Source: Gammaproteobacteria bacterium (GTDB taxonomy: Bacteria; Pseudomonadota; Gammaproteobacteria; Steroidobacterales; Steroidobacteraceae). From it: a DNA stretch of 64,000 nucleotides. Position numbers and translations under genes: made by a program. The DNA lies in the NCBI GenBank assembly GCA_020851435.1, contig JADZCS010000246.1, positions 6,783 through 70,782 of the forward strand. Reading direction: 5' to 3'. Shown piece after piece: positions 12,260 to 30,456 of this stretch. A model generated the notes under the pieces. It did not search any database and was not told the DNA's origin. It was given only the letters and a program-made list of their open reading frames with translations. Each line of letters begins with the position of its first letter. The first letter of the stretch is position 1.

Positions 12260-14161
12260 ATGATCGAAGCCGAAGCGAACGAGTTGCGGGGCCTGTGTCA
12301 GGACCACTATCACGGCCTGCTGCCGCGAGAGGTCTATCGCGCGCGCCGCGCAAAACTCATCGACGGGCTGATCGGCATGCGGCCCCCCAACGAGGACACC
12401 ACGCGCCCGCAGCACGCGGCGAAGCCGCCCCAGGCGTCGGCGCCTGCAGTTGGGCCCAGCACGCACCCAGGCACTCCCGTGCCGCCCGCCGCCCCGGCCA
12501 CGCCACGTCCTGCGGAGGCCGTGCCTGCGCCGGCGCCCGTGGCCGCTCCTCCTGCGGCGTCTGACGCCCGCACGACCTTCGGCGCGCGCCGCTCGCCGCC
12601 TGCCGCGCCGGCTCCGGTCGAGGCAGCGCCGGCCACGGCCGTTCCCAAGGCTTCACCAGCCGCAGCAGCGGCGCCCGTCTCGGCGGGCAAGGGTGGCAAG
12701 ACCCCGCTCGTGATGGGATTGGCTGCCGTTGCTGTGCTTGGCATCGCCGCGGCGGTGCTGATGATGCGCGGCGGAACGCCGGATGGCGGCGAAGCGCAGT
12801 CGACTGAGGCGGCCGCTCTCGCGGGAGGCGAGGCGCCGCAGGGCGAAGACGAGCCGCGTCGGCTGGCACGCGAGTTCCTGACAGCCAACGACTGGAGCGA
12901 TCCGGCGGTCCGCAAGCTTGCGGGAGACTGGAACACGCTCGACGAAGCTGCGCGCCGCAGCGCGTCGCTCGCGCCCTGGTTCGCCACCCTGCAGGCGAGT
13001 GTCCAGGAAGCGATCATCGGCCGGCAGCGCACCCAGCTGAAGTTCGGCGAGGACCCGGTCGATCCGCAGGATCCGATCTATGTCCTTGCGTCGGCCCTGG
13101 CAATCGATATCGCACCGTTGACCGAAGCAGCGCGCGGGCCCGCGGTGGCCGGGACGGCGCGTGCACAGGAAGCGGTTGCCTCGCCGACCGCCGCTGCACC
13201 CGTGGCGGCTGCCAGCCCCGTGCCTGCTGCGCCGAAGCCTGCCACGCCGGCGGCGGAAGCCGCTTCCGCCGGACGCTCAACCCCGGCGAGCCCGCCGGCC
13301 AAGCCGCAGGTTGCAGGCCCCACCGCGGCGAAGGCCGGTACCGCGTCGCAGCCCCCGGCAGCCGCCGCTGCGTCGGCGGCGACGACCGTGGCCGCTGCCG
13401 CAGCCGCTGCGTCAGCGAGGCCCTGCACGCGCGAACGTCTGCAGACGCGCGATCGTTCCTGCTTCGACCTCATGGCGAGCGGCGAGCAGGGGCCGGCGAT
13501 GATGCTGTTGCCGGGCGGCAGCTTCAGCATGGGTTCAGAGGCACCTGACGAGGCGCCAGTACACGACGTGCGTGTCGGGGACCCGTTCGCCCTGTCGGTG
13601 TTCGAGGTCTCGGTCGGCGAGATGAAGCTGTTCTGCGCGCGCAGCGGCAAGCCCTGCCCGGCGATGTCCGGCGGCGACGACCTGCCGGCCACCAACGTGT
13701 CCTGGTCGCTCGCGCGCGATTACGCGGCCTGGCTGTCGAGCGTGACCGGCCATCGCTATCGCCTGCCCAGCGAGGCCGAGTGGGAGTACGCGGCGCGCGC
13801 AGGCACGCGAACGGCCTATCCCACCGACGAGGGCGACAAGATCACGGTGCCCGACGCGATTTTCAGCGATCGACAGAAATTGTCGGCGCCGGTCGCAGGC
13901 AAGGCGGGCAACGCAAATCGCTACAAGTTGCGCCACATGCTCGGAAACGTGAGAGAGTGGGTCGCTGACGCTTGGAATGAGTCTCATGCCGCTGCACCCA
14001 CGGATGGGAGCGCGCGTGAGCGGGGGACGGGGACGGCGAAGGTCGTCAAGGGTGGGTCGTTCGCTGACGGCATGGACAAGGTTCGTCCGGCCGCGCGCGA
14101 GCGCCTCGAGGCGTCATCCGGCGATCGGTTCACGGGCTTCCGTGTACTGCGCGAGATTTAG
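12260..14161 (+). CDS. Membrane-anchored FGE-sulfatase-domain protein (TagR-like paralogue)
   Basis: SD GGAG lies 8 nt upstream. Short cytoplasmic N-terminus plus a Pro/Ala-rich tail (contains SDARTTFGARRS). One TM (PLVMGLAAVAVLGIAAAVLMM). The C-terminal domain (about nt 13500-14158) has FSMGS..., VSWSLARDYAAWLS, YRLPSEAEWEYAARAG, GNVREWV, VKGGSF and GFRVLREI, matching FGE-sulfatase/SUMF1-type folds. Confidence 0.85.
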   Translation: MIEAEANELRGLCQDHYHGLLPREVYRARRAKLIDGLIGMRPPNEDTTRPQHAAKPPQASAPAVGPSTHPGTPVPPAAPATPRPAEAVPAPAPVAAPPAASDARTTFGARRSPPAAPAPVEAAPATAVPKASPAAAAAPVSAGKGGKTPLVMGLAAVAVLGIAAAVLMMRGGTPDGGEAQSTEAAALAGGEAPQGEDEPRRLAREFLTANDWSDPAVRKLAGDWNTLDEAARRSASLAPWFATLQASVQEAIIGRQRTQLKFGEDPVDPQDPIYVLASALAIDIAPLTEAARGPAVAGTARAQEAVASPTAAAPVAAASPVPAAPKPATPAAEAASAGRSTPASPPAKPQVAGPTAAKAGTASQPPAAAAASAATTVAAAAAAASARPCTRERLQTRDRSCFDLMASGEQGPAMMLLPGGSFSMGSEAPDEAPVHDVRVGDPFALSVFEVSVGEMKLFCARSGKPCPAMSGGDDLPATNVSWSLARDYAAWLSSVTGHRYRLPSEAEWEYAARAGTRTAYPTDEGDKITVPDAIFSDRQKLSAPVAGKAGNANRYKLRHMLGNVREWVADAWNESHAAAPTDGSARERGTGTAKVVKGGSFADGMDKVRPAARERLEASSGDRFTGFRVLREI

Positions 14162-14290
14162 GGTCGAGCTGGGGTTTCAGATTTGCTGTTTTTCTTTGGC
14201 GAAACACAACCGACATCACGCTCTGGCAACTTGCTTTTTGTCGCAGGTTCAGTGGGATGCGTTGTGCGTCGCCAAAATAGGGGACTGGTC

Positions 14291-14319
14291 TTGCTAGGTA
14301 TTGAGGTGAAGACTAGTCT
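14291..14319 (+). promoter_or_regulatory. Candidate sigma70-type promoter in the only large + strand gap of the cluster
   Basis: TTGCTA (14291-14296), a 17-nt spacer, then TAGTCT (14314-14319). The -10 lies within the perfect palindrome AGACTAGTCT (14310-14319), which is flanked by direct TAGGTAT repeats (14295-14301 and 14324-14330). The match is weak and rests on position only. Confidence 0.25.
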
Positions 14320-14420
14320 CGTTTAGGTATCAACGAATGGAACGTCGCCCTCGTGGGGTTGCCGCGCCCGTTTCGGGCCAGGGCAAGGGTGTCGACGTTG
14401 CGTCATGGAGGGGAATTCGA

Positions 14421-16205
14421 GTGCACTCCCAGAATATCCGCCCGATCGGGCGCGCATTGCTGTCCGCCGCGATTGCCACGCTGTGCTGCGTGCCGGTCCA
14501 GTCCGCCTGGACGCAAGCCCAGGTCCAGGTTCCGCCCGGGGCTACCCCCGGCGCAAACGTGCCGCGTGATACCGAGCGCATGACTGCGCCGCCGGAGGCC
14601 GCGCCGGACATCTTTTCCGTGCCGCGCAAGCTCGACCGGCCGGTAGGCGCGGACGAGGGGCCGCGCGTACGTGTGCAGCGCTTCGAACTGTCGGGCGCCG
14701 TGGATCGCGCCGATGCCGGGATCAAGGTCGCCGACATCACGGCCCTGCTGGAAAAGCAGCGCGCCGCGCAGCCCGCCGAAGGCTTCACCATCGTGCAGCT
14801 CGAAGGTGTCGCCGAGGAGGTCACCAAGTACTACCGCAGCCACGGCCTGCTTCTGGCCCAGGCATTCGTGCCCGTCCAGGAAGTCTCGGGTGGAGTGGTC
14901 AAGGTGGGCGTGCTCGAGGGCAAGCTCGGCGACGTGACGGTCGAGGGCAACAAGCGCTACAGCACGCGCTCGATCCAGGATGCCTTCGCGCAGATCGTCG
15001 GTGAGCCGGTCAACCAGCTCAGCGCCGAGAAGGCGCTGTTCACGCTCAACGACTATCCGGGCCTGGACGTCTACGGCGTGTTCCAGCCGGGCAAGCAGAT
15101 AGGTTCCACGACGCTCGCCATCCAGGTGCGGCGCGAGGACCCGATGGAGTATTACGCCGCGGCCGACAACTTCGGCCCCGACTCGACCGGCCAGTACCGC
15201 GTTCGTGCAGGCCTGCTGGCCAATTCGCCATTCGGTTTCGGCGACCAGCTCAACGCCTACGCGATCTACAGCCTCGACCCGTCGGACAGCAACGCCGACA
15301 GCCTCTTTGGTGGCATCGAGTACAACTTCCCGATGCCGCGCACCTACGCGCGCTACGCACTGCGCTATTCGACCAGCGACTACAACGTCGGCGGCGAGTT
15401 CAGCGACTTCTCCGGCAAGAGCTACATCGGCGAGGTCGAGGGTAACTTCCTGCTGAAGCGCACGCGCACCAATACCAGCCGCCTGTACATCACTGGATCG
15501 AAGAAGAAGGGCGAGGTTTCGGCCAGCCTCGGATCGACGCAGGAAGACAAAGTCCAGTCGCTGACCGCTCGCTTCGAGAGTTCGATCATCGACACGCGTT
15601 TCCGGGGCGTCAACCGCATCGACTTCGGCTACACGACGGGCGAGGTCACCAACGCAGATCCAGCCGTCAACACACGCTTCAACCTGAGCCCCGGCTTCAC
15701 GCGCTGGAACCTGTCGCTCGAGCGCTGGCAGCGGCTCGGTGAGGCTGCAGCCCTGGTCATCAATGCCCGAGGCCAGGCCAGCGGCGACCGGCTGACGTCA
15801 TTCGACCAGGTCGCGATCGGCGGGCCCGAGAACGTTCGCGGCTACCGGCCGGCGACGTTCTTTGCCGACGAAGCGGCCACTGCATCGGCCGAGTTCATCC
15901 TCGAAGCGCCCGGGTTCCACGACCGCAAGGCCTGGAAGGACTACACCTGGGGCCAGGTACTGAAGTTCCACGTATTCGCCGACTACGCATACGCGAAGGT
16001 CAACGGCGTGCCGAGCGGCAGCGCAACGCTGACGCGCGACGAGGACTTCTCCAGCTTCGGCGGCGGAGTCTCTTTCGAACTGCCAGGAACGGCAAGCGCG
16101 CGCCTCGACGTGGCGCGCCCCTTCAACACGGATGATGAAATCCTCGACGGCGTGGCCGTGAAGAGCGAGACGCAGTTCTTCTTCACGGTTGGATACAGTT
16201 TCTGA
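14421..16205 (+). CDS. Two-partner-secretion outer-membrane transporter (FhaC/ShlB/HecB, Omp85 superfamily, POTRA + beta-barrel)
   Basis: GTG at 14421 is preceded by GGAGGGG and gives a signal peptide (HSQNIRPIGRALLSAAIATLCCVPVQSAWTQAQ). POTRA-like region (VRVQRFELSGA...). Omp85 motif GPENVRGYRP. C-terminal beta-barrel ending ...FFFTVGYSF. The ORF-track start 14337 is an upstream alternative. Confidence 0.85.
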   Translation: MHSQNIRPIGRALLSAAIATLCCVPVQSAWTQAQVQVPPGATPGANVPRDTERMTAPPEAAPDIFSVPRKLDRPVGADEGPRVRVQRFELSGAVDRADAGIKVADITALLEKQRAAQPAEGFTIVQLEGVAEEVTKYYRSHGLLLAQAFVPVQEVSGGVVKVGVLEGKLGDVTVEGNKRYSTRSIQDAFAQIVGEPVNQLSAEKALFTLNDYPGLDVYGVFQPGKQIGSTTLAIQVRREDPMEYYAAADNFGPDSTGQYRVRAGLLANSPFGFGDQLNAYAIYSLDPSDSNADSLFGGIEYNFPMPRTYARYALRYSTSDYNVGGEFSDFSGKSYIGEVEGNFLLKRTRTNTSRLYITGSKKKGEVSASLGSTQEDKVQSLTARFESSIIDTRFRGVNRIDFGYTTGEVTNADPAVNTRFNLSPGFTRWNLSLERWQRLGEAAALVINARGQASGDRLTSFDQVAIGGPENVRGYRPATFFADEAATASAEFILEAPGFHDRKAWKDYTWGQVLKFHVFADYAYAKVNGVPSGSATLTRDEDFSSFGGGVSFELPGTASARLDVARPFNTDDEILDGVAVKSETQFFFTVGYSF

Positions 16206-16237
16206 ACGCCGCGACGAACAGAATTCAGGAGACGAGC

Positions 16238-19200
16238 ATGGCACGGAATGAGACGCTTGCTTTCCACGTGACACGGATGCTGCGCGACGCTTCGCTGCAG
16301 GCCGGCGTGGTTACCGCCGCAACCCTTCTGGCCGTCGCGCCGGCGATCGCCGGTCCGCAGGGCGGCCGAGTGAGGACCGGATCCGGCAGCATCGCAACGC
16401 CGACGGCGACAAGCACGGTCGTGACCCAGGGCAGCCGCTTCCTGGCGGTCGACTGGACCAGCTTCAACGTTGCGGCTGGCGAGAGCGTCCAGTTCGTGCA
16501 GCCGACGAGTTCGTCTGTCGCGCTGAACCGGATCTGGGACCAGAACCCGACCCAGATCTTCGGCCAGGTCATGGCGAACGGTCGCCTGATCATGGTCAAC
16601 CCGAACGGCATCTACTTCGGGCGTTCCGCGACCCTGAACGTGGGCTCGCTGCTGGCGACCACGATGAACGTCAGCGACATCGATGCGCAGAATGATCGGC
16701 TTACGCTGGACGGCGCCGGCACGCGCGGCATCGTCAGCAACGCCGGCCTGATCGAGGCCGCACCGGGCGGCTCGGTCGCCCTGATCGGCGGCGCGGTGGA
16801 GAACACCGGCCGCATCGTCGCCAACATGGGCGCCGTGACGCTCGCCGCCGGCACCTCGGCGACAGTCGACTTCGCCGGCGACGGCCTCATGCAGTTCGCC
16901 GTGTCGGGCGACGTTGCTGAGCAGCTCAATGGCCAGCGCGCAGCGGTGTCCAACAGCGGCGAGATCGTCGCCGATGGCGGCACGATCCTCATGACCGCTC
17001 GCGACGCGAACCGTGTGTTCGACGCGGCGATCAACAATTCGGGCGTGCTGCGTGCCGGCCGCATCGAGAACCGCGGCGGTTCGATCGTGTTGTCCGCCCC
17101 CGATGGCGACGTGATCCACAGCGGTGTCGCCAGCGCGACTGGCGATGCGAACTCGTCCAGCGGCGGCAGCGTCAGCATTTCCGGCGACCGCGTCGGCCTG
17201 TTCGGCGAAGCCGTGGTCGACGCGTCTGGCGTCAACGGCGGCGGCAGCGTGCGCATCGGCGGCGGCTTCCAGGGCCGTGATGCGTCCATCGAAAACTCAT
17301 CCCTGACGCTCGTGTCCTCGGGCGCGAGCATCGGCGCCAGCGCCACCGGCGCGGGCGACGGCGGCAACGTCGTGATCTGGTCCGACGGCACGACGCGTTA
17401 CTTCGGTGACATCAAGGCCGAGGGCGGCGCGACGGGCGGCAACGGCGGCTTCGTCGAAGTGTCCGGCCTCCAGGTGCTCGATTTCCAGGGCACTGTGTCG
17501 ACGCTGGCTGCCCAGGGCATTCGCGGCACTTTGTTGCTCGATCCGGATAACCTGAACATCGTCGCGTCCCACGCGGCCGACAACGATACTTATGACTCGA
17601 CGACGGAGGCTTTCGGCACCCCGGGAGCGGGCACTGCGATCCTCGAGTCCGGCGATTTCGCCAGTGGTGGCGGCAACGAAGGCACGTCTTTTCTGCTGGT
17701 GTCGGTGCTGGAGAGCCAGCTCGCGACCAACAACGTGCGCCTCGAAGCGCAGGACGACATCACGGTGTCGTCCGCGGTCACGTCGAGCGCCGACGATCGC
17801 AGCCTGACGCTGTGGGCCGGCAACAACATCGATTTCCAGGCCGGCGTGTCGCTGACCGGGGCGAATTCCAGCCTGGTGGCGCGCGCGGGCGTGGATAATT
17901 TCACGACCGGCGCGGTCGACCCGGATGGCGGCCAGACCAACACGATCAACGTGGCGGACGGCGTGACGCTGCAGGCCAGCACCATCACCTTCGAAGCCGA
18001 GGACTCGATCCTGGCAGCGGGCACCACGGGTGTCCTGAAGGCGACCACGGTCAACCTCAACGCCAACAACGGCACCCTGACGGCCAACACCACAGCCACC
18101 ACGCTCAACGCTACCGCGACGGGCAACATCATCCTGCGCGAAGCCGATGGCGTTGCGCTCGGCACGGTGTCCGGTGCCGATGTCACGGTCACGACCACTG
18201 CTGGCTCGATCACGGGCAGCACTGCCGTCACGGCAACCGGCAACCTGTCGGTCACCGCGGGCGGCGCGACCAACGACATCACGCTGAACAACCTGAACGT
18301 GACCGGAACGTCGAAATTCGTCGCGGCGGACGTCATCGACGTCTCCGGCGACTTCGGCGGAGCCGTGGCCGCGTCTGGCGCCGGCAACGTCACGATCGCT
18401 GACAGCACGGCACTCGTGCTGGGCACCGTGTCTGGTGCCGTAGTGTCGGTGACGGCAGCGACCGACATCGACAATGGTGCGATCACGTCGACCGGCAGCA
18501 CGACGCTCAAGGCGACCGCGGGTGACATCAGCAGCACCGACATCAAGGCACCGTCTGCGAGCCTGACGGCTGGCGGGGCGATCACCACGGTAACCACTGC
18601 GGTCGGCACGCTTGCCGCGACGGCCGTGGGCAACATTTCGATTGCTGAAGCCGATGCCTTGACGCTGGGCGTCGTGTCCGGCGACGGTGTGTCGATCAGC
18701 ACGACGACCGGCAGCATCGACGTCGGGGCCGGCGGCTCCGTGACCGCGGCTGGCAACCTGGCCCTGACGGCCGGTGGTGCGACCAGCGACCTCACTGGCA
18801 CCGGATTCGATGTCACAGGTACCAGTTCGCTCAATGCGGGCGACGCCGTTACGGTGTCGGGCAAGTTCGTGGACGTGGTGTCCGGCACCACCGGCGGGGC
18901 GTTCTCCATCACCAGCGCCGATACGCTCACGGTCGGCGCCATCTCGGGCGCCAGCATCAAGGTCGCCAGCACGGCTGGCGATATCCTCGACGACGGCGCG
19001 GCAACCCGCCTGACGGCGGCCACGAGCGTAGTCCTCGAGGCTGCCGGCGATATCGGCCTGACCACTGCCGGTGACGAAATCGACACCGCGGCTGCTTCGA
19101 TCAGCGCGACCGCCACCGACGGCAATATCTTCATCGACGAGAGCGACGCCGTTACCCTGACCAGCCTGTCGGCCACTGGGCCGGCGCTGACCAGCGGCGA

Positions 19201-22200
19201 TGCCGTCGTCACGGCCGGCGGTACGATCACAGTCGGCGCCGTGAACGCGTCGGATGTCGTCGCCCTGACGGCGACCACAGGAAACATCGCCCTCGACGGT
19301 GACAACTCGACCCGGATCGTCGCGCCCAACGTGCTCCTCGCTGCGACGAGCGGTTCGGTTTCTGCCCAGACGACCTCCGCGTCGGTGTCCGCGGACGGCA
19401 CGTCGCTGACTGTGTCCGACAATCTGGAAACCGGCGTGACGATTTACACGCTGGTGGCGGACGGCGACGTCAGTATTACCGACGATGGAGGCATCACCAT
19501 CGCCACGCCCATCGACGGCACGGCGAACGTCAAGAACGTGTCTTTGATCGCGGATGCGGACGGAGACGCGGTGGCCGGAGAGGGCTTGGTCGAACTGCCC
19601 GACGGCAACGCCGCCTGGATCAGCGGTCCGGTCAACCTCGACAGCCTGACGGTTCGCGGCACGGGCGTGTTTTACACAGCGAACAATACGACCACCCTGG
19701 GTGCGAACTTCTTCCTGGGTGCAGAGACGATCGACCTGCGGCAGCGCCTCGAAGGACCCGGTACGACCGCGAACGTTGGCAATGCCACGAACGTCACGAT
19801 CCTGGAAGCCCTGTCCGGCAATACCATCACCATCAATTCGACTCTCGCATCGGGCGGTCTGGCCCTGAACGTGTCGGGTTCTGCGTCCCTCGAAGTCAAT
19901 GCAGTGACCACCGGCGCCCTCACGCTGACCAGTTCAGTGTCGGACCTGCAGGACATCGCGTCCGGCGGATCCATCGCAATCACCGACAGCCACGAGGATG
20001 CCGGCGGCCGTTACACCATCGCTTCCAACGGCGACGTGTCTATCACCGACGTAGGCGGAATCATTCTCACCGGCCAGATCACGGACGGCGGCAACATGTC
20101 CGTCCTGTCGCTGGTTGCGGACTCCGACAACGATGCGGCCACGGTGGACGCTGGGCTGCTGACGCTGGCCGACCGCAACGCGGCGATCGTGTCTGGCACT
20201 CCGAACCTGAGTTCCGTCACGCTGCGCGGCACGGACATCCGTGCGTCGCTCAACGATGCGGACCCGACCCTGACCTTCGCCATGGGCGCCAACCAGTTGA
20301 TGGGCGCCGAGACGGTCAACCTGGGTGCGCGCCTTGCGGCGCGCAGCTATGACGTCAACCTCGGTGGCGCTACCAGCGTCAACGCCACGGTCGGTGGCAC
20401 GGCCCGCGACCTGACTCTGACTTCCGAACTGACCAGCGGCACGCTGTCGGTCGCGGGGGCCAGCGCGTCCGGCGTGCTGACGATCGACACTTCGACGGGC
20501 GCGGCCGGGGCTGCGGCGGCGAACATCGACTCCAGCAAGACGACCCTGTCCGGCAGCAGCGTCTACGTGGTCGCGGACGGCTCGGTTAAGACTGGTGCTG
20601 TCACTGCGACTGACGCGACGCTCGGCGACGTGAGCCTGCGGGCGCTTGGCACGGGCTCGAACCTGACGATCACGGGGACCGTAACGGTCGCCGACGTCGT
20701 TACTCTCGAGGCGGGAGGGTCCCTGACCGGCGGTCTCAAGATCCCGACTGCCAATTCGGCGAGCATTACGGTTGGTGATGCCATCGACGGCGTCGACATC
20801 ACGACGGTCGGTCAACTCGATGTGACCACCACTACGCCCACCGGATCGATCAGCAATTCGAATTTCACGTCGACTGGTTCCAACGTGTTCGTGACGTCTG
20901 CGGCCACTTCAGACAACGTCCACCTAGCCGCGAATGCGGACGCGATCCTCTGGTCCGCCGGTACCGTGACGAATTCGTCGGCTGTCGCGAGCCGGGCCGC
21001 GATCGTCACCACGGGAGCCGCCGGCGATGTGGTGGATTCGGCGGTGTCGGGCAATTCCGACGCGGTGATCATCGCTGCGGGTACCGGTTCGATTTCCGGC
21101 AGCACCGCTACCTCCTCCGGGTCGACGGTCCTCAGGGCCGACGGCACCGGTTCCATCAGCAACTCCAGCATGACTGGCGTGACCGGTACCTTGTCGGCGC
21201 CGGGGGGATCGGCCAGCGTTACCTCGAATATCTCGGGCTCGTTCAACGTCAACGTTGGCGGGTCAGTGGCAATCTTCGACACAGGCGAGGCGACTGCCAC
21301 GACCTACAGCGTCAGTGCAGACGGCGCGGTTTCCATTGTCGACAACGGCGCGCTGACACTATCGGGTGCGATCGTCGATCGAACAGGGGGCGGCGTCATT
21401 TCCTCCGTCGCTCTGATCGCGGATTCGGACGCTGATGCGGCAGCCGGCGCCGGCGACCTGACGTTGGTCGGGGAGGGCGTGGCCCTGGTGCAGAACCAGG
21501 CCGACGCGAGCGCGGTGACTCTGTCCTCGATCTGGCTCAGCGGCACCGACGTCAACTATTCGGGCGCCCCAACTAATCCAAGCAGTTTCGGATCGTCGAT
21601 CCTGTCCAATGCGACGAATATTGTCTTTGACGCGACACAGGCCACGCGGCTCTATTCGCTCAGCATCGGCAATGCAACGTCGTTCTCCGGATTGGTCGGC
21701 GGCGCGAGCCCGAACGACCTGTACATCAGCTCCACTCTGGCCGCTCCGGCGACGCTTAACGTGGCGTCCACTTCGGCAACCGGTTATCTGAACATCTATA
21801 CGCCGGCGAACCTCACTTCCTCGGGCAGCACGCTGTCGGGCAATGCGGGTGTATCCGTCAGCGCCGACGGCAATATCACCGATCTCGCCGCGTATTCATC
21901 CGCTGCAAGCGTGTACGTCCAGTCGAATGGCAGCATCTCGAAGTCCTCCGGGACCATCGACGGCGACGGGCAGTACGTCTACCTCTATACCCAAAGCGGT
22001 GGCAGCATCACCGACAGTTCGGTGCTGGCCACGGGTGCAGGTTCGTACGCGACGCTGCTCGTCTACAACACCGGGACCGGCTCGATCAGTAACTCGTCGG
22101 CCACTGCGACCGGTACCAATGGCGTTGCCCAGGTTTGCGCCAGCAGTTTCGTCTGCGGAGGCACTGGACTCGGCAGCATCACCGGTACGACGGTCACCTC

Positions 22201-25200
22201 GACCCAGGGCACGGCCTCCGTGTACGGCACCGACATCGGTGGTGGCACGACGGTTAGCGCGGCAAATACGGCATGGTTGACAGCGACGGCTGGCTCCATC
22301 GCGGCGAGTACGGCTGTTGGCGGCCTCAATGCGACCGCGACCGGTACGGTCACCATCACCGAGGCCGATGCTGTAACGCTGGGCAATGTATCCGGCGCCG
22401 GGGTCACGCTTGCGAGCACCAACGGCACGATCAGCGGCGGCAGTGTCTCGTCGATCGGCGCGGGCAACGATGTGACGCTGACGGCCAACGGCGCCGGCAG
22501 CAACATCACCGGCACGAAGGTCAATGCCGCGGACGCAGCGACGCTGACGGCAGCCAATGCGATCACCAGCGTCAACGTGTCGGCTGGCGGCGCCGCAACG
22601 CTGACGGCGACCAAGGGCGAAATCACCGGCGTCGTGAACGCGGCGACGGCTGCGCTCAACGCTGCCACCTTCATCGACGTCGACACGACGGTCGGCACGC
22701 TGGCCGCCTCGGCCGGCGGCGACATCACCGTCGATGAGACTGACGGTATCGTCCTGGCAACCATCTCAGGCGCGAACATCGACATCGGCACGACGGCCGG
22801 CTCGATCACCGGCGGCACGGTCACCGCGAACGGCGCCGGTACCGACGTCGTCCTCACGGCCGGTGGCGCGACCAGCGACATCGACGGTGTGACCGTGACG
22901 GCTCCCGACACGGCCTCCGTGACGGCGGGCCGCTCGGTGCTCAACTCCACGATCTCCGCCGGCACCTCGGCCACGGTCGTGGCGACCGCGGGTTCGCTGA
23001 CCAACAACACGATCACCGGCCCGACCTCGCTGACGCTGACCGCCGGCGGCGGTTCCATCACCGGCGCCATCAGCACGAATGCGGCAACTCTGACCGCTGG
23101 TACGTTCATCGACGTCGACACGACGGTGAACACGCTCAGCGCTACTGCAGCAGGCGACGTGACGATCGACGAGACCGACGCGGTGACCCTTGGCTCCGTG
23201 AGCGGCAACAACGTCGTGATCACGGCGGGCGGGACGATCACCAACGGCAACGTGTCGGCGACCAAGGATGCGACGGTCACCGCCAATGGCGTCGCCAGCG
23301 ACATCGCCGGCACCGTCGTCAGTGCGGGTAACGTCGCGGCACTGGCTGCCGGCGATTCGATCGACGCACAGGTGACCGCACTTTCCGCGAAGTTCAATGC
23401 GGGCAGCACGATCACCGCCTCGACCCAGGTCGGCACGCTGTCCGCCACGGGCGGCGGCGCAGTGGCGATCACCGAAGCGAACGACCTGACTATCGGCAGC
23501 ATCACCGGTGCTGGCGTGAGCGTCCTCGCATCTGCCGGCTCGATCTCCGGCGGTACGGTCACCTCGACGGGCGCCGGCAACGACGTCACGCTGACGGCGG
23601 CTGGCGCGGGCAGCGACATCAGCGGCACGACGGTGGTGGCGGCCGACCAGGCTGTCCTGACGGCCGCTGACGTGCTCACGGCCACGGTCACGGCAGCTGG
23701 CGCGGACCTCAACGCGGGCGGCGCGATTACGGCGACCACGACGGTCGCCAACCTCGCGGCCGACTCGACCGGCGGTAGCGTTTCGATCAACGAGACCGAC
23801 GCGGTCACCTTCAGCACCCTGTCCGGCACGAGCGTGTTCCTGGGAGCTGGCGGTACGATCACGGGCGGTACGCTGACAACGGCCGGCAGCGCGGGCCTTA
23901 ACGCGACCGGCGCAGGCAGCGACATTGTCGGGGCGTCGATCACTGCAGGCACCACGAAACTGTCTGCGGCCGATGCGATCACCGTGTCGACGACGACCGG
24001 CACGCTCGGCGCCACGGGCGGCGGGGCGGTGTCGATCACCGAGACGGACGCGGTCACCTTGGCATCCCTGAGCGGTGCGGGCGTGTCCCTGACGGCAGGC
24101 GGCACCATCAGCGGCGGCACGGTCACGTCGACCGGCGCCGGCAACGACGTCTCGCTGGTGGCGACCGGCGCGTCGAGCAGCATCGACAGCACGGTGGTCA
24201 ACGCCGCCGATGCAGCGACGCTGACGGCAGGCAATGCGATCACGGCGGTCACTGTCACGGCTGGTGGCACGGCCACACTGACGGCGCAGGCGGGTCAGAT
24301 CACCGGCGTGGTGAATGCCGCCACCGCTGCCCTGAATGCGGCGACTTTCATCGACGTCGACACCACGGTCGGCACGCTGTCGGCGACCGCTGGCGGTGAC
24401 ATCCTGGTCGACGAGACCGACGGCCTGATCCTGGCGACGGTTTCCGGCGCCGGCATCGACATCGGCACGACGGCCGGTTCGATCACGGGTGGAACGGTTA
24501 CCGCGAACGGGGCGGGCTCCGACGTGGTGTTGACCGCGGGCGGCGCGAGCAGCGACATCGACGGTGTGACGGTCACGGCTGCCGACCAGGCGACCCTGAC
24601 GGCCGGCCGGTCGGTGCTCAACTCGACGGTCAAGGCCGGCAATGCAGCGACGATCGTCGCGACAACCGGATCGTTGACGGGCAACACCTTCAGCGGCCTG
24701 GCGGGCGACGTGCTCGACACGCTGACCCTGACGGCGGGTGGCGGTTCGATCACGGGCACCGTGTCCGCGGTCAACGCGAACCTGACGGCCGGGACCTTTA
24801 TCGACGTTGACACGACGGTCGGTACCCTGAACGCGACGGCCAACGCCGGCGACGTGACCATCGACGAAACGGACTCGCTGACGCTTGGCACCATCGCCGG
24901 CAACAACGTGTCCGTCACTGCTGCTGGCTCGATCTCCGGCGGTACGGTGACTGCGGCGACGAATGCGACCCTGGCGGCCAACGGCGGTGGCAGCAGCATC
25001 ACCGGCACGGTCGTTACGGCTGGCAGTGCCGCCGCGCTGAGCGCGGGCGACGCCATCAATGCCCAGATCGCCGCGGCCTCGGCCACCCTGAATGCCGGCG
25101 GTGCGATCACGGCGGCGACGACGGTCGGCACGCTGTCTGCGACTGGCGGCGGGGTAGTTGCGATTACGGAAGCGAACGACCTCACGGTCGGTACGATCAC

Positions 25201-27268
25201 GGGCGCAGGCGTCACGGTGACGACGACGGCAGGCACGCTCAGCGGCGGCACGGTCACCTCGACCGGTGCCGGCAATGACGCGGTGCTGACGGCCGGCGGC
25301 GCGGGTAGCGACGTGAGCGGAGTGACGATCGTCGCCGCCGATCAGGCTGTCGTCACGGCCGCCGATGCGATCAGTGCGACGGTGACGGCCGCCGGTGCGG
25401 ACCTGAACGCCACCGGAGCGATCACCGCCACCACGACGGTTGCCAGCCTCGCGGCTGATACGACGGGCGGTGCGGTGGCGATCACCGAGACCGACGCAGT
25501 CGCGTTCTCGTCGCTGTCCGGCACCAGCGTGTCGCTGGCGGCGGGCGGCAACGTCACGGCTGGCACTGTCGCGACGACCGGCGCGGCGACGATCTCGTCC
25601 ACGGGGTCGATCCTCGACGACGCCAACGCGGCGACCCGCATCGCGGCCAGCACGGTCACGTTCACGGCGGGCGGCTCCATCGGCACCAGCACCGAGAGGG
25701 TGGGCACCGATGTCGGCACCCTGAACGCGACCACCACCAACGGCAGCATCTTCATCAATGAAGCCAACGCGGTGGCCATCGGTTCGGTGACCGCCAACGG
25801 CGCCGGCTCCGACGTCGACATCCTGTCCGGCGGTGCGATGACGGTCAGCAACTCCTCGCTGACCGCGGCCGACACCGTCGTGCTGCGCGCGACGACCGGC
25901 GACGTCACCCTGGGTCGGGTGACGGCTGGCACCACGGCGGCCATCACGGCCGACGCCGGCAGCATCCTCGACGACGGCCAGGCGGATACCGCCATCCGGC
26001 TGACGGCGACGGGTGCGACCCTCACGGCGTCGGGCTCGATCGGCACCGCTTCGGCGGGGCTCGATACGAGCCTGGATACCCTGACGGCCACTGCGACCAC
26101 CGGCAACATCTACATCGATGAGGCGAACGCCATCACGCTGACCAGCGTCACGGCCAACGGCGCCGGCGCTGACGTGGGCATCACCGCTGCTGGCAACATC
26201 ACCGCGACGAGCGTGAAAGCGGGCGATACGGTGGGCTTGACGGCGACTTCTGGCAACGTGGCCTTTGACCAGGTCACGGCAGGCGGGGCTGCGGCCGTCT
26301 CGGCAGCCAGCGGCTCGATCACGGACGTGGACTCGGACTCGGTGCTGACCGCGTCGACCGCGACCCTGACCGCTGCCTCGGGCATCGGCACGGCCTCCAG
26401 CGCCTCGACCGGTGGCCGGGTCGACACCGCGGTGGGCAGCATCACGGCAACCGTCACGGGCGCCGGGGCGGGGATGTTCATCGAGGAACTCGACAGCGTC
26501 ACCATCAACAGCCTGCGCAGCGTGGGTGGCACGATCGAGTTCGCCGCTGGATCGACGGCTTCCGGTGCCGGTACGGTCGTCACGCTGGGTTCGACGACCA
26601 CGGCCAACGTCCCTGTGACCACGGGCCCCACCGCCCAGGTCACCAGTGGCGTAGGCCTGGTGGGCGACGTCCTGATCGTGTCTTCGGGCAGCATCGTCAG
26701 CGGCCTCGCGTCGACCGGTGCGCCGAACGTCATCGCCAACCAGGTCGAGTTGCGGTCGCCGGCGGTCGGTGCGAGCGTGACCCAGCCGGTCAACATCAAC
26801 ACCAACCTGCTGCGCCTCACGCTGCCGGCTTCGGTGGTGGCGTCGCGGGTCCGCCCGAACTACACCCTGACGCCCAACCCGCCGCAGTTCGAGGTGTTCA
26901 GTGTCGCGGCAGGCGTCGGCGATCCGGCGTGGTTCTCCGCTGGCTTCTTCGGCATCGGCGAGCGCGACATCGCGGCGCAGGCACTGTTCGCACCCTTGAA
27001 CAACACCGGCTCGGCGTCGGATGCGGGTTCGCAGGCGGGCGAGGATCCGAGCGTCATCGACTGGTCGGCGCTCGCGCAGACGGTTGAGCCCTTCGGTCGT
27101 GGCCAGCCGCCGATCTGCCTGCCGGCAGACCAGAGCGAGGACGAGGAGTCGGCGTGCGGCGGCCAGGAGCAGGCGGCAGGCGTCTGGCCCAACCGCCCGG
27201 TGCTGGTGTTCACGGCCAATGGCCTGAAGGTCAGGTACCTGGGTCATTCCGGCCGGCTGATGCGCTGA
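16238..27268 (+). CDS. Giant TPS-secreted exoprotein (FhaB/filamentous-haemagglutinin-like, 3676 aa)
   Basis: SD AGGAGA upstream. Extended signal peptide. N-terminal TPS (haemagglutination activity) domain with LNRIWDQNPTQIFGQVMANGRLIMVNPNGIYFG (NPNGI motif). The remainder is Thr/Ala/Gly/Ser/Val-rich beta-helix-type repeats (ITE[AT]DAVTLG.VSG...). It lies immediately after its cognate transporter gene. Confidence 0.9.
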   Translation: MARNETLAFHVTRMLRDASLQAGVVTAATLLAVAPAIAGPQGGRVRTGSGSIATPTATSTVVTQGSRFLAVDWTSFNVAAGESVQFVQPTSSSVALNRIWDQNPTQIFGQVMANGRLIMVNPNGIYFGRSATLNVGSLLATTMNVSDIDAQNDRLTLDGAGTRGIVSNAGLIEAAPGGSVALIGGAVENTGRIVANMGAVTLAAGTSATVDFAGDGLMQFAVSGDVAEQLNGQRAAVSNSGEIVADGGTILMTARDANRVFDAAINNSGVLRAGRIENRGGSIVLSAPDGDVIHSGVASATGDANSSSGGSVSISGDRVGLFGEAVVDASGVNGGGSVRIGGGFQGRDASIENSSLTLVSSGASIGASATGAGDGGNVVIWSDGTTRYFGDIKAEGGATGGNGGFVEVSGLQVLDFQGTVSTLAAQGIRGTLLLDPDNLNIVASHAADNDTYDSTTEAFGTPGAGTAILESGDFASGGGNEGTSFLLVSVLESQLATNNVRLEAQDDITVSSAVTSSADDRSLTLWAGNNIDFQAGVSLTGANSSLVARAGVDNFTTGAVDPDGGQTNTINVADGVTLQASTITFEAEDSILAAGTTGVLKATTVNLNANNGTLTANTTATTLNATATGNIILREADGVALGTVSGADVTVTTTAGSITGSTAVTATGNLSVTAGGATNDITLNNLNVTGTSKFVAADVIDVSGDFGGAVAASGAGNVTIADSTALVLGTVSGAVVSVTAATDIDNGAITSTGSTTLKATAGDISSTDIKAPSASLTAGGAITTVTTAVGTLAATAVGNISIAEADALTLGVVSGDGVSISTTTGSIDVGAGGSVTAAGNLALTAGGATSDLTGTGFDVTGTSSLNAGDAVTVSGKFVDVVSGTTGGAFSITSADTLTVGAISGASIKVASTAGDILDDGAATRLTAATSVVLEAAGDIGLTTAGDEIDTAAASISATATDGNIFIDESDAVTLTSLSATGPALTSGDAVVTAGGTITVGAVNASDVVALTATTGNIALDGDNSTRIVAPNVLLAATSGSVSAQTTSASVSADGTSLTVSDNLETGVTIYTLVADGDVSITDDGGITIATPIDGTANVKNVSLIADADGDAVAGEGLVELPDGNAAWISGPVNLDSLTVRGTGVFYTANNTTTLGANFFLGAETIDLRQRLEGPGTTANVGNATNVTILEALSGNTITINSTLASGGLALNVSGSASLEVNAVTTGALTLTSSVSDLQDIASGGSIAITDSHEDAGGRYTIASNGDVSITDVGGIILTGQITDGGNMSVLSLVADSDNDAATVDAGLLTLADRNAAIVSGTPNLSSVTLRGTDIRASLNDADPTLTFAMGANQLMGAETVNLGARLAARSYDVNLGGATSVNATVGGTARDLTLTSELTSGTLSVAGASASGVLTIDTSTGAAGAAAANIDSSKTTLSGSSVYVVADGSVKTGAVTATDATLGDVSLRALGTGSNLTITGTVTVADVVTLEAGGSLTGGLKIPTANSASITVGDAIDGVDITTVGQLDVTTTTPTGSISNSNFTSTGSNVFVTSAATSDNVHLAANADAILWSAGTVTNSSAVASRAAIVTTGAAGDVVDSAVSGNSDAVIIAAGTGSISGSTATSSGSTVLRADGTGSISNSSMTGVTGTLSAPGGSASVTSNISGSFNVNVGGSVAIFDTGEATATTYSVSADGAVSIVDNGALTLSGAIVDRTGGGVISSVALIADSDADAAAGAGDLTLVGEGVALVQNQADASAVTLSSIWLSGTDVNYSGAPTNPSSFGSSILSNATNIVFDATQATRLYSLSIGNATSFSGLVGGASPNDLYISSTLAAPATLNVASTSATGYLNIYTPANLTSSGSTLSGNAGVSVSADGNITDLAAYSSAASVYVQSNGSISKSSGTIDGDGQYVYLYTQSGGSITDSSVLATGAGSYATLLVYNTGTGSISNSSATATGTNGVAQVCASSFVCGGTGLGSITGTTVTSTQGTASVYGTDIGGGTTVSAANTAWLTATAGSIAASTAVGGLNATATGTVTITEADAVTLGNVSGAGVTLASTNGTISGGSVSSIGAGNDVTLTANGAGSNITGTKVNAADAATLTAANAITSVNVSAGGAATLTATKGEITGVVNAATAALNAATFIDVDTTVGTLAASAGGDITVDETDGIVLATISGANIDIGTTAGSITGGTVTANGAGTDVVLTAGGATSDIDGVTVTAPDTASVTAGRSVLNSTISAGTSATVVATAGSLTNNTITGPTSLTLTAGGGSITGAISTNAATLTAGTFIDVDTTVNTLSATAAGDVTIDETDAVTLGSVSGNNVVITAGGTITNGNVSATKDATVTANGVASDIAGTVVSAGNVAALAAGDSIDAQVTALSAKFNAGSTITASTQVGTLSATGGGAVAITEANDLTIGSITGAGVSVLASAGSISGGTVTSTGAGNDVTLTAAGAGSDISGTTVVAADQAVLTAADVLTATVTAAGADLNAGGAITATTTVANLAADSTGGSVSINETDAVTFSTLSGTSVFLGAGGTITGGTLTTAGSAGLNATGAGSDIVGASITAGTTKLSAADAITVSTTTGTLGATGGGAVSITETDAVTLASLSGAGVSLTAGGTISGGTVTSTGAGNDVSLVATGASSSIDSTVVNAADAATLTAGNAITAVTVTAGGTATLTAQAGQITGVVNAATAALNAATFIDVDTTVGTLSATAGGDILVDETDGLILATVSGAGIDIGTTAGSITGGTVTANGAGSDVVLTAGGASSDIDGVTVTAADQATLTAGRSVLNSTVKAGNAATIVATTGSLTGNTFSGLAGDVLDTLTLTAGGGSITGTVSAVNANLTAGTFIDVDTTVGTLNATANAGDVTIDETDSLTLGTIAGNNVSVTAAGSISGGTVTAATNATLAANGGGSSITGTVVTAGSAAALSAGDAINAQIAAASATLNAGGAITAATTVGTLSATGGGVVAITEANDLTVGTITGAGVTVTTTAGTLSGGTVTSTGAGNDAVLTAGGAGSDVSGVTIVAADQAVVTAADAISATVTAAGADLNATGAITATTTVASLAADTTGGAVAITETDAVAFSSLSGTSVSLAAGGNVTAGTVATTGAATISSTGSILDDANAATRIAASTVTFTAGGSIGTSTERVGTDVGTLNATTTNGSIFINEANAVAIGSVTANGAGSDVDILSGGAMTVSNSSLTAADTVVLRATTGDVTLGRVTAGTTAAITADAGSILDDGQADTAIRLTATGATLTASGSIGTASAGLDTSLDTLTATATTGNIYIDEANAITLTSVTANGAGADVGITAAGNITATSVKAGDTVGLTATSGNVAFDQVTAGGAAAVSAASGSITDVDSDSVLTASTATLTAASGIGTASSASTGGRVDTAVGSITATVTGAGAGMFIEELDSVTINSLRSVGGTIEFAAGSTASGAGTVVTLGSTTTANVPVTTGPTAQVTSGVGLVGDVLIVSSGSIVSGLASTGAPNVIANQVELRSPAVGASVTQPVNINTNLLRLTLPASVVASRVRPNYTLTPNPPQFEVFSVAAGVGDPAWFSAGFFGIGERDIAAQALFAPLNNTGSASDAGSQAGEDPSVIDWSALAQTVEPFGRGQPPICLPADQSEDEESACGGQEQAAGVWPNRPVLVFTANGLKVRYLGHSGRLMR
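22437..25560 (+). repeat. Diverged tandem macro-duplication (about 1.45 kb matched per copy) inside the exoprotein gene
   Basis: Unit A is about 22437-23870 and unit B about 24115-25560. They are colinear at protein level (e.g. GAGNDVTLTANGAGSNITGTKVNAADAATLTAANAIT... versus GAGNDVSLVATGASSSIDSTVVNAADAATLTAGNAIT...). Many differences are synonymous at DNA level, and B has a small insertion (FSGLAGDVLDT). Confidence 0.8.
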
Positions 27269-27301
27269 TCGGCGCCCACCAACGGACTGGGAGGGAAGGG
27301 A

Positions 27302-28348
27302 ATGGCAAGACTGGACGTCGCACACTGGCTCGAATCCACCGTGGACGAGCCGCCGTGCGGACCTGACCTCGAGTACGACCAGCGCTTCCTGGCGCTGGAA
27401 CGGCTCGGGCAGATCAAGCCGGAGAAGGAGAGTGGCGGCGTCATCACGCCTGCGGAGGAGCCGGATTGGCGCGAGGTTCGGGAGGCCGCGGAGGAACTCA
27501 TGGAGGTCGCGCGCGACTTCCGGATCCTCAAGCACCTCGCGCTGGCCGGGTTGCGCCTCGAGGGCTTCGGGCCCTTTGCGGACAGCCTGCAGGTAGCGCA
27601 GGGCTGGCTGGAGAACTTCTGGGACGACGTGCATCCGAAGCTCGACCCGGACGATGGGGATCCCACCTTCCGGTCGAACGCCCTGCTGGATTTCTGCAAC
27701 CCGGACACGATGCTGAAGTTCCTGCGCACGACGCCCTTCGTGTCCTCGAGGGCCGTCGGGCGGTTCTCGCTGCGCGATTACCGCATCGCCACCAACAAGC
27801 TGAGCCTCCCTGAGGGTTCCGAAGAAACTCCGCCGACCGAAGCGGCGATCTCGGGCGCCTGCACGGACGTCTCGCTCGAGGATCTCCAGGCGACGGCTGC
27901 CGACCTCGGCGCTGCCTATGACGCCATCAAGGCCATCGACGCACTGCTGCTCGACCGGATCAGCGACCAGGCGCCCGACTTCAAGACACTGATCGCCGAC
28001 CTTTATGAATTGCGCAACGTGGTCAATGCGCAGGTCTCCGCGAGGACGGGCGGTGGCGACGAGGGCTACGGCGATGAAGGCGGGGGTGACGGAGAGTCCG
28101 GCGGAGGAGGGGGCGGGCGCGGCGTGTCGGTCGGCCAGGTCTCCATCAGGTCGCGCGACGACGTCGTCAAGCTGCTCGACCTCATCTGTCGTTATTACGA
28201 GTTGAACGAGCCGGCAAGCCCAGTGCCGCTTATTTGCCAGCGCGCGAAGTCGATGGTGACCATGAATTTCATCGACCTTCTCGCCAGCCTTGCGCCCGGG
28301 GGTGTGCCCGAGGCCAAGAATGTATTGGGAATCAAGGACGATTACTAA
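27302..28348 (+). CDS. tssA: T6SS protein TssA (ImpA N-terminal domain, short TssA1-type)
   Basis: ImpA_N signature (VDEPPCGPDLEYDQRFLALE). Gly/Asp/Glu-rich linker. Conserved C-terminus. SD GGGAGGGAAGG upstream. Starts only 33 nt after the exoprotein stop. Confidence 0.88.
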   Translation: MARLDVAHWLESTVDEPPCGPDLEYDQRFLALERLGQIKPEKESGGVITPAEEPDWREVREAAEELMEVARDFRILKHLALAGLRLEGFGPFADSLQVAQGWLENFWDDVHPKLDPDDGDPTFRSNALLDFCNPDTMLKFLRTTPFVSSRAVGRFSLRDYRIATNKLSLPEGSEETPPTEAAISGACTDVSLEDLQATAADLGAAYDAIKAIDALLLDRISDQAPDFKTLIADLYELRNVVNAQVSARTGGGDEGYGDEGGGDGESGGGGGGRGVSVGQVSIRSRDDVVKLLDLICRYYELNEPASPVPLICQRAKSMVTMNFIDLLASLAPGGVPEAKNVLGIKDDY

Positions 28349-28381
28349 GTTCGGTATTGATACCACCAGGAGGAGCCATCC

Positions 28382-28906
28382 GTGGCCAAGCAAAGCAGTC
28401 AGAAGTTCATCGCGCGGAATCGCGCGCCGCGTGTGCAGATCGAGTACGACGTCGAGGTCTTCGGGTCCCAGAAGAAGGTGCAGCTGCCCTTCGTCATGGG
28501 CGTCATGGCCGACCTTTCTGGCAAGAATGCCGAATTGCAGCCCGATTTCGCCGACCGCAAGTTCCTCGAGGTCGACGTCGACAACTTCGACGACCGCCTC
28601 AAGTCGATGAAGCCCCGCGTGCAGTTCACGGTCCCGAACACCCTGACGGGTGAGGGCAACATCCCGGTGGACATCACTTTCGAGAGTATGGACGACTTCT
28701 CGCCGGCGGCAGTCGCCCGCAAGGTCGAGGCCCTGTCGAAGCTGCTCGAGTCGCGCCAGCAGCTCGCGAATCTCGTGACGTTCATGGATGGCAAGGCGGG
28801 CGCCGAGAAGCTCGTGCAGGACCTCCTGAACGACCCGGCCCGCCTGCAGGCGGTTGTATCGCAGTCGCACGGCTCTGGCGGCGGCTCGTCGGACGAACAG
28901 GCTTAA
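28382..28906 (+). CDS. tssB: T6SS contractile sheath small subunit TssB (VipA)
   Basis: GTG start with AGGAGG upstream. Typical sequence KFIARNRAPRVQIEYDVE...LPFVMGVMADLSGK. Confidence 0.95.
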   Translation: MAKQSSQKFIARNRAPRVQIEYDVEVFGSQKKVQLPFVMGVMADLSGKNAELQPDFADRKFLEVDVDNFDDRLKSMKPRVQFTVPNTLTGEGNIPVDITFESMDDFSPAAVARKVEALSKLLESRQQLANLVTFMDGKAGAEKLVQDLLNDPARLQAVVSQSHGSGGGSSDEQA

Positions 28907-28919
28907 GGAGCAGGCAGTC

Positions 28920-30407: not shown

Positions 30408-30421
30408 CCCGGGAAAGCACA

Positions 30422-30456
30422 GGGCGCTCGCCTTCGGGCGGGCGCCCCTCGATTTT
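30422..30456 (+). terminator. Hairpin with short T-run between tssC and hcp (partial terminator or processing element)
   Basis: GGGCGCTCGCC (30422-30432), TTCG loop, GGCGGGCGCCC (30437-30447): 11 bp including one G-U pair. It is followed by CTCGATTTTA. Confidence 0.45.

Follow-up and report, generated by a model that had tools for sequence, protein, structure and literature searches.

The window analysed here, a 64-kb stretch of contig JADZCS010000246.1 from a gammaproteobacterium of the Steroidobacteraceae, carries a type VI secretion system (T6SS) gene cluster in which a two-partner-secretion (TPS) pair follows the threonine-phosphorylation genes pppA and ppkA and a tagR-like gene. The pair consists of an FhaC-like outer-membrane transporter and a 3676-aa exoprotein, TpsA. 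We consider it probable, at roughly 0.55, that FhaC and TpsA are an accessory module dedicated to a variant of the T6SS threonine-phosphorylation pathway and act as its envelope input. Judged by gene neighbourhoods across genomes, the conserved link is that of the kinase to the TPS pair, not that of the TPS pair to tssA, and this TPS subfamily is co-inherited with a single-transmembrane, long-stalk Hanks kinase bearing an end domain that resembles formylglycine-generating enzyme (FGE).

Conserved linkage of the TPS pair to FGE-type kinases

An alignment of the FhaC subfamily was used to scan 185,579 species genomes, which afforded 80 loci at 30–40% identity in which homologues of the window proteins were placed by tblastn. 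Outside the window's own lineage, the closest FhaC homologues share ~40% identity. PppA and/or FGE-type PpkA was encoded beside the TPS pair at 67 of the 80 loci; five of the 13 remaining contigs were too short to judge, so that the kinase module is present at 67 of 75 assessable loci. PppA usually belongs to the kinase/TPS set, and a TagR-like protein often does.

The loci display several architectures. The T6SS-embedded form has the order tssL/M-tagF-(fha)-pppA-ppkA-tagR-fhaC-tpsA, as in the window, and tblastn placed this order at at least 15 further non-redundant T6SS loci, one of which belongs to the cultured Steroidobacter gossypii S1-65 (L013). Precomputed Pfam annotation of L007 and L008 gives tssM-tagF-fha-pppA-ppkA(FGE)-FGE protein-fhaC-tpsA, with unrelated genes following tpsA. 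A minimal form, found in Steroidobacter and Povalibacter, comprises a kinase-FGE gene, fhaC and tpsA only; it is represented by L010, a metagenome-assembled genome (MAG) of the Steroidobacteraceae, and by the cultured Povalibacter uvarum DSM 26723. In the cyclase-linked form, one strand carries pppA, ppkA and tagR headed by an adenylate/guanylate-cyclase-FHA fusion, and genes for a parvulin-type peptidyl-prolyl isomerase (PPIase), FhaC and TpsA run divergently. About 50 loci are of this last kind and have no T6SS gene within 10 kb (L030, L035 and L086, for instance), which suggests a kinase-to-cyclic-nucleotide pathway with a TPS partner. L035 may serve as an example of the layout, with coordinates 7394–8293 on the − strand and 8540–9532 on the + strand.

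Outside the window, the gene upstream of fhaC can lie very close to it. The gap measures 2 nt (L007) or 14 nt (L008) after the gene for the FGE (TagR-like) protein and 35 nt after the kinase gene of L010; in other lineages, the distance from the upstream FGE gene (tagR or ppkA) to fhaC is estimated to range from an overlap to ~500 nt. What remains constant across contexts is a kinase with an FGE-like end, a transporter and a fibre, while the cytoplasmic output varies (T6SS, FHA-cyclase or none nearby). Genomic context also tracks phylogeny in a neighbour-joining tree of 107 FhaC sequences, which comprises 51 cyclase-linked sequences, 15 T6SS-linked sequences plus that of the window, and 22 from co-directional kinase contexts. 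Within the window, fhaC and tpsA match the neighbouring genes in GC content and in GC content at third codon positions (GC3). Gene order kept at a distance, a tree that follows context and matched GC and GC3 together argue for long co-inheritance rather than recent insertion.

Long and short forms of PpkA

The reciprocal comparison started from the kinase. Metagenome contigs were scanned with the PpkA FGE domain to give 80 loci, which were classed by the distance between kinase domain and FGE domain, a long form being one in which this distance exceeds 3 kb. Long PpkA was accompanied by a TPS pair in 21 cases and lacked one in 3, whereas short PpkA, always located in tssL-tssM-tagF-pppA-ppkA clusters, was accompanied by a TPS pair in none of 13 (Fisher's exact p = 1.6e-7, uncorrected for phylogeny).

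In the short-form loci, exbB-exbD-exbD-tonB-like genes always stand directly after ppkA. This arrangement is seen in L115, L120, L122, L126, L128-L130, L133, L135, L142, L144-L146, L149, L156, L163, L166, L168, L170-L172 and L174, with L172:10789-14969 as an example. At L172, tssA-tssB-tssC follow tonB; the block order is thus that of the window, with a Ton-like module where tagR-fhaC-tpsA stand in the window. The occurrence of the long form with TPS and of the short form with Ton indicates that FGE-type PpkA pairs with either of two mutually exclusive sets, both envelope-spanning and reaching the outer membrane. To our knowledge, a T6SS-associated Ton system beside ppkA has not been described.

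Kinase, TagR-like and TssL proteins

Window PpkA begins with a Pro-rich N-terminus containing two copies of DNDRTAFRGAPS (window 7600–7760) ahead of a Hanks kinase domain at aa 236–457. A single transmembrane segment (~aa 508–530) is followed by a largely helical stalk of ~800 aa, an Ala/Pro-rich linker and the C-terminal FGE-like domain. Six invariant cysteines in this domain suggest disulfide bonds and an oxidizing, that is periplasmic, location. The TagR-like protein is predicted to have a cytoplasmic N-terminus, a transmembrane segment at ~aa 148–172, an Ala/Pro-rich linker and a periplasmic C-terminal FGE-sulfatase-like domain; for both proteins, topology is a prediction from hydrophobic segments.

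The closest solved structure to the TagR-like domain is PvdO (5HHA), and alignment with the true FGE 6S07 indicates that both active-site cysteines are missing. Because the catalytic cysteines are absent, the TagR-like FGE domain is more likely a binding module than an enzyme. We considered a role for TagR as a formylglycine-generating enzyme acting on a C-L-P-A-D site of TpsA and rejected it, given the missing catalytic cysteines and the lack of conservation of the cysteine in the motif.

The N-terminus of TssL (window 869–920) contains the sequence GGDRTVFKP with Thr12, and a DRTxF motif is common to TssL and PpkA. In Agrobacterium tumefaciens, PpkA phosphorylates TssL at Thr14 and Fha binds the phosphorylated site (PMC3953482). 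By analogy, the DRTxF motifs of TssL and PpkA are candidate phosphorylation sites, and they may explain the absence of an fha gene between tagF and pppA, the position that it occupies in related loci.

The transporter and the exoprotein

By domain content and adjacency, fhaC and tpsA constitute a complete TPS (type Vb) pair. The transporter, which conforms to an Omp85-family 16-stranded barrel with two POTRA domains, matches POTRA_2 (E = 1.8e-10) and ShlB (E = 3.4e-25) in Pfam, and its AlphaFold2 model (mean predicted local distance difference test score, pLDDT, 80.8) has CdiB 6WIM (E = 2.9e-27) and FhaC 4QL0/4QKY as top PDB matches. TpsA, whose sequence includes VNPNGIYFG, is predicted to be exported by its TpsB partner. 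The full-length 3676-aa protein gave zero Pfam matches, and the TPS domain emerged only from a separate scan of its first 500 aa. With TpsA divided into five segments, Pfam returned only this domain and a weak DUF5649 match across all of them, with no Fil_haemagg, PT-VENN or toxin domain. Nor does an immunity gene follow tpsA, as tssA starts 33 nt downstream. Tandem Repeats Finder detected no tandem arrays in tpsA; diverged direct repeats of 124–300 nt and 61–81% identity are present at 22.4–25.6 kb.

The TpsA subfamily has a C-terminal motif of the general form (I/V)DW..F.P.V.LFG...P...LP.DQ.DE., which no Pfam or NCBIfam model covers. It lies at or near the C-terminus in 15 of 15 aligned TpsA sequences, drawn from three context types and two loci without a kinase in reach, and a hidden Markov model (HMM) of the motif finds a single full-length match in each locus, which, where it can be placed, lies at or close to the 3′ end of tpsA. 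Queried with the C-terminal 252 aa of TpsA, a homologue search returned the window's own protein alone, and exhaustive phmmer with the last 125 aa returned five proteins at E ≤ 0.001, one of them the window's own fragment. Since single-sequence searches did not trace the motif in the large protein libraries, its profile comes from the loci compared here. At L008:20076-20330 and in L088, which represent the same MAG contig, the motif is out of frame with the called gene end, as would result from either an assembly frameshift or a pseudogene copy.

Organization of the T6SS cluster

The window opens inside tssK, and the 5′ part of the cluster therefore lies beyond its start. According to Pfam scans, every T6SS gene from tssK to clpV (35339–38071) is on the + strand, in the order tssK-tssL-tssM-tagF-pppA-ppkA-tagR-like-[259-nt gap]-fhaC-tpsA-tssA-tssB-tssC-hcp-tagJ-tssE-tssF-tssG-clpV (Table 1). 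The core set of tssA, B, C, hcp, E, F, G, K, L, M and clpV is thus present in full by Pfam in a TagJ-bearing, H1/i3-like subtype, and PpkA, PppA and TagF of the threonine-phosphorylation pathway are encoded beside tssM. No tssJ, vgrG or PAAR gene was found in the visible part of the cluster, which the window start truncates. Between tssK and clpV, the cluster holds neither an ABC transporter nor any additional gene, hence no TagQ and no TagS/TagT visible there.

Table 1. Features of the T6SS cluster and TPS pair in the 64-kb window
Feature	Position	Strand	Evidence or remark
tssK, 5′ end cut by window start	29–865	+	Pfam T6SS_VasE E = 2.7e-94, profile positions 155–429
tssL, DotU with OmpA-like C-terminus	869–2266	+	Pfam DotU E = 3.4e-66
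tssM	2270–5812	+	Pfam IcmF-related_N, IcmF-related, IcmF_C
tagF, start 5809 or 5827	~5809–6537	+	Pfam TagF_N E = 1.1e-40; NCBIfam TIGR03373
pppA, PP2C phosphatase; likely start GTG 6539 behind GGGAG	~6539–7342	+	Pfam PP2C_2 (E = 1.5e-11), PP2C
ppkA, long form, 1635 aa	7339–12246	+	Pfam Pkinase E = 3.6e-40 and C-terminal FGE-sulfatase
tagR-like gene, FGE-sulfatase protein, 633 aa	12260–14161	+	Pfam FGE-sulfatase E = 3.3e-43
AT-richer intergenic gap, 259 nt	14162–14420	+	54% GC vs 68% for the window
Island block CGCCAAAAT	14270–14278
Island block TTGCTA	14292–14297		followed by variable 17-nt spacer
Island block TAGTCT	14315–14320
Island block CAACGAA	14331–14337
fhaC-like gene, TpsB outer-membrane transporter, 594 aa, signal peptide; GTG start behind GGAGGGG	14421–16205	+	Pfam POTRA_2 and ShlB
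fhaC-tpsA gap, 32 nt	16206–16237		Shine-Dalgarno (SD) sequence; preceded by CAGGAGA
tpsA, exoprotein, 3676 aa, internally repetitive beta-helix-like body	16238–27268	+
TPS secretion domain of TpsA (aa 50–297), NPNGI motif	16385–17128	+	PF05860 E = 2.8e-34; TIGR01901 E = 6.9e-22
TpsA C-terminal motif (aa 3606–3637), SVIDWSALAQTVEPFGRGQPPICLPADQSEDEE	27053–27148	+	alignment of TpsA C-termini; motif HMM
tpsA-tssA junction, 33 nt	27269–27301	+	SD GGGAGG; no terminator or promoter consensus
tssA	27302–28348	+	Pfam ImpA_N; L001 gene calls
tssB	28382–28906	+	Pfam VipA; L001 gene calls
tssC	28920–30407	+	Pfam VipB; L001 gene calls
GC-rich hairpin between tssC and hcp, 11-bp stem with 10 GC pairs	30422–30447	+
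hcp, tagJ (ImpE), tssE, tssF, tssG, clpV	30483–38071	+	Pfam

Directly 3′ of clpV, a 240-aa open reading frame (ORF) at 38075–38797 without a Pfam or NCBIfam match is the last + strand gene of the cluster, and it is followed on the − strand by a TPR-methyltransferase gene. Further downstream, a single 855-aa ORF at 40699–43266 combines aspartokinase (AA_kinase, ACT) with diaminopimelate-decarboxylase-type domains in an apparent lysC-lysA fusion, after which a his operon occupies 43.2–50.3 kb on the − strand.

Intergenic regions and transcription

A preliminary description of this DNA had portrayed the pair as a complete TPS system in an entirely co-directional cluster, with one sizeable AT-richer gap before fhaC, short SD-bearing gaps on either side of tpsA and neither terminator nor promoter consensus before tssA. 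All of this is borne out: the transporter has POTRA_2 and ShlB domains, the exoprotein has a TPS domain, the + strand layout extends from tssK through clpV, and the gaps measure 259 nt (the largest intergenic gap in the cluster), 32 nt and 33 nt. The last of these contains GGGAGGGAAGGGA, and its RNA folding is no better than that of shuffled sequence (z = 0.28). On the + strand, a strict consensus scan of 13800–16600 and 26000–31200 found no sigma-70-like site, and no terminator-like site was found in 13800–16600 and 26000–28200, the tpsA interior (16600–26000) lying outside both scans. The hairpin after tssC, with its short T-containing tail, is the first non-coding terminator- or attenuator-like element downstream of the gap before fhaC.

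Alignment of the tagR-fhaC gap of the window with those of L093 and L094 (71% FhaC identity) revealed a conserved island at 14270–14337 between diverged flanks. Located ~100 nt upstream of fhaC, this island is a candidate promoter or operator that the strict consensus scan did not pick up. For the same gap, a sigma-54 promoter was rejected, as the GG + TTGCT spacing is right in the window and is not kept in L093 or L094. The gap has no Rfam match and no unusual fold, and a riboswitch or known leader RNA was dropped for these reasons. We also rejected a tssA promoter located within the last part of tpsA, since the sole strongly conserved DNA block there (the last 270 nt) encodes the protein motif common to all TpsA homologues.

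Read-through from the gap into tssA may occur, being compatible with the sequence, and would be confined to the window's lineage. In L091, which shares 73% TssA identity, a long ORF ends 25 nt before tssA; in TssA relatives at ~40–44% identity, the genes that precede tssA are unrelated. Scanning metagenomes with TssA by itself gave no relatives. Only in the window's near lineage is tssA seen after tpsA; in other T6SS loci with a complete tpsA, the TPS pair closes the cluster. Some T6SS-linked contigs end inside tpsA, and the absence of tssA after tpsA is settled only where tpsA is complete. A lone TssA homologue without adjacent tssB or tssC was observed on a Rhodanobacter chromosome (CM129663.1, L092:12199-21035), where its opposite-strand neighbour encodes a protein of >3600 aa with no Pfam match on record.

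Proposed mechanism and alternative explanations

We rate the fibre and its transporter as the most likely input because the cytoplasmic catalytic domain of the kinase can only pass information inward. In the mechanism that we propose, TpsA would be exported to the cell surface by FhaC, while its C-terminal motif or the periplasmic POTRA face of FhaC would remain close to the FGE-like ends of PpkA and TagR. If the fibre were touched, pulled or damaged, this periplasmic interaction would change and thereby activate PpkA, which would then phosphorylate a target, possibly Fha or the DRT-motif N-terminus of TssL. T6SS assembly would begin at the contact site, with PppA and TagF resetting the system. 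In the window's lineage, the tssA-clpV block directly 3′ of tpsA may in addition be co-transcribed with tpsA, as a local arrangement. The preliminary description had listed the exoprotein as a possible envelope cue sensed by the kinase module, and of its suggestions this one fits the comparative data best, since the linkage persists without a T6SS.

Several observations weigh against this reading. At eight assessable loci of the FhaC subfamily, no kinase lies within 10 kb, three long-PpkA loci have no TPS pair within reach, and FGE-type PpkA also pairs with ExbBD-TonB, so that TPS is not obligatory for the kinase class. A tblastn search with the L007 Fha query found no Fha homologue in the 64-kb window, the region upstream of tssK lying beyond it. 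The cysteine within the C-terminal motif of TpsA is not universal, which makes a simple, FGE-substrate-like CxPxR recognition unlikely. Most loci come from MAGs, and their counts are not phylogenetically independent. Every link in the kinase/TPS model is drawn from gene neighbourhood, and the direction of information flow from topology alone; the contact between the partners, its direction and its trigger are likewise what we infer from these sources.

The relationship might run in the opposite direction, with the kinase/FGE module servicing the fibre. The FGE-like domains of PpkA and TagR, together with the PPIase elsewhere, would then hold, chaperone or gate TpsA during export, and the kinase would signal or control the state of secretion; T6SS and fibre would share their regulation without the fibre acting as a sensor. 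The parvulin-type PPIase directly upstream of fhaC in cyclase-linked loci fits such a periplasmic chaperone set. In favour of this direction are also the minimal loci, which hold kinase-FGE, fhaC and tpsA and no obvious output gene, and the FGE-fold proteins PorK/GldK, which are structural parts of the type IX secretion system (T9SS). We nevertheless regard this direction as unlikely: a Hanks kinase with a cytoplasmic catalytic domain and a partner phosphatase is a signalling device, the outputs vary while the TPS part stays constant, the TagR-like FGE domain lacks the catalytic residues needed to modify TpsA, and the window encodes no PPIase. Less probable still is that the pair serves T6SS firing through co-expression only, the fibre holding targets in range and being co-transcribed with tssA-clpV from a promoter upstream of fhaC, with no signalling link to PpkA. 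Such an arrangement would agree with the conserved promoter-like island before fhaC, with the lack of a + strand terminator-like site in the stretches scanned around fhaC and the tpsA-tssA junction, and with the retention of that junction as 25 nt in L091. It conflicts with the restriction of the tpsA-then-tssA order to the near lineage and with the correlation of the TPS pair with long-stalk PpkA rather than with T6SS as such. The adhesion-primed firing put forward in the preliminary description, in its simple form, also fails to explain why the TPS pair keeps its kinase partner at ~50 loci where T6SS genes are absent from the surrounding 10 kb.

That description had further depicted the pair as wedged inside the cluster and had allowed for a recent insertion. 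The AT-richer gap upstream of fhaC and the unrelated genes that precede tssA in distant TssA relatives might raise the suspicion that an unrelated operon, for a TPS adhesin or a contact-dependent growth inhibition (CDI) toxin, arrived horizontally between two T6SS blocks and is functionally independent of them. This reading is now largely refuted and, in our estimate, very improbable. GC and GC3 are those of the neighbours, many lineages keep the gene order at 30–40% protein identity, the FhaC tree follows genomic context, and the ppkA-tagR block of many distant lineages keeps the TPS pair at its 3′ end. A toxin operon is further disfavoured by the absence of a PT-VENN or toxin domain and of an immunity gene, with tssA only 33 nt after tpsA. 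The borders showed no evident repeats, direct or inverted, and no evident tRNA or mobile-element genes, although no dedicated search was made there. As to synteny in other genomes, the position of fhaC and tpsA after the ppkA/tagR block recurs widely, and tssA follows only in the near lineage.

Returning to the pair as envelope input of the phosphorylation pathway, a broader and more tentative proposal, to which we give somewhat less than even odds, is that the TpsB/TpsA fibre and the long-stalk kinase with its FGE-like end form a modular gammaproteobacterial surface-contact sensor whose same input is wired to different FHA-domain outputs, T6SS or cyclase. The proposal bears on what PpkA-type kinases sense and on how a T6SS detects a touching neighbour; the known inputs (TagQRST, RtkS, TssW and TslA) are lineage-specific, and their mechanisms are poorly understood. 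The conserved genetic link between fibre and kinase gives a concrete candidate for an input device and suggests that two-partner secretion serves signalling as well as adhesion and toxin delivery. That dozens of genomes combine the kinase/fibre cassette with an FHA-cyclase speaks for a sensory module of general use and not for a peculiarity of T6SS. If the proposal is correct, type V secretion would provide the antenna of a Ser/Thr phosphorylation pathway, and the T6SS of the window would fire on fibre-mediated touch. Searches of full-text literature found no paper linking TPS to PpkA or TagR, two reviews made no mention of such a link, and no TPS component appears among the T6SS accessory genes catalogued in 2026. 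Threonine-phosphorylation control of T6SS is itself already known; what may be new is the place of a TPS pair in it, possibly as a general contact sensor.

Comparison with known systems

The TagQRST-PpkA-PppA-Fha1 pathway of the Pseudomonas aeruginosa H1-T6SS likewise combines the Hanks kinase PpkA, the PP2C phosphatase PppA and TagF next to tssM, and TagJ and the tssA-tssB-tssC-hcp order are common to the H1-T6SS and the window. Relative to the domain content of P. aeruginosa PpkA and TagR, window PpkA differs in its long helical stalk with a terminal FGE-like domain, and the window TagR-like protein has a transmembrane anchor rather than being soluble. The window also has no visible TagQ lipoprotein or TagS/TagT ABC transporter, and TpsB/TpsA follow tagR instead. 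The pathways agree in having a COG1262/FGE-fold TagR that acts upstream of the kinase, and in P. aeruginosa an outer-membrane component conveys envelope information to the kinase (PMC13584744).

Control of PpkA by outer-membrane or periplasmic partners is a recurring theme, exemplified by TagQRST in Pseudomonas and RtkS in Serratia (PMC13584744) and by TssW in Acidovorax (PMC12607579). Like the TPS pair, TssW of the TssW-PpkA-Fha system (Acidovorax citrulli) and RtkS of the RtkS-PpkA system (Serratia marcescens) are lineage-specific envelope proteins encoded beside ppkA; they bind or activate the kinase and set where and when the T6SS assembles (PMC12607579; PMC13584744). TssW is a single outer-membrane protein and RtkS a periplasmic protein, and neither is a secretion system or displays a fibre of several thousand residues. 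TslA/OmpA and TagM1 of Acinetobacter and Burkholderia are comparable as accessory envelope proteins that couple cell contact to a local T6SS start (PMC13584744). They differ in acting on the membrane complex without a kinase and are unrelated to the TPS pair in sequence and architecture.

On the secretion side, the pair resembles FhaB/FhaC of Bordetella and CdiA/CdiB in its Omp85-type TpsB with two POTRA domains, its TPS domain with NPNGI and the adjacency of tpsB and tpsA. Window TpsA differs from FhaB and CdiA in having no Fil_haemagg repeats, PT-VENN, toxin or immunity gene and in carrying a distinct conserved C-terminal motif; a neighbouring Ser/Thr kinase module such as the one found here is not known from the loci of FhaB or CdiA. 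In both FhaB and CdiA, the C-terminal part is kept in the periplasm until a trigger, and given this retention, it is plausible that the TpsA C-terminus is read out in the periplasm.

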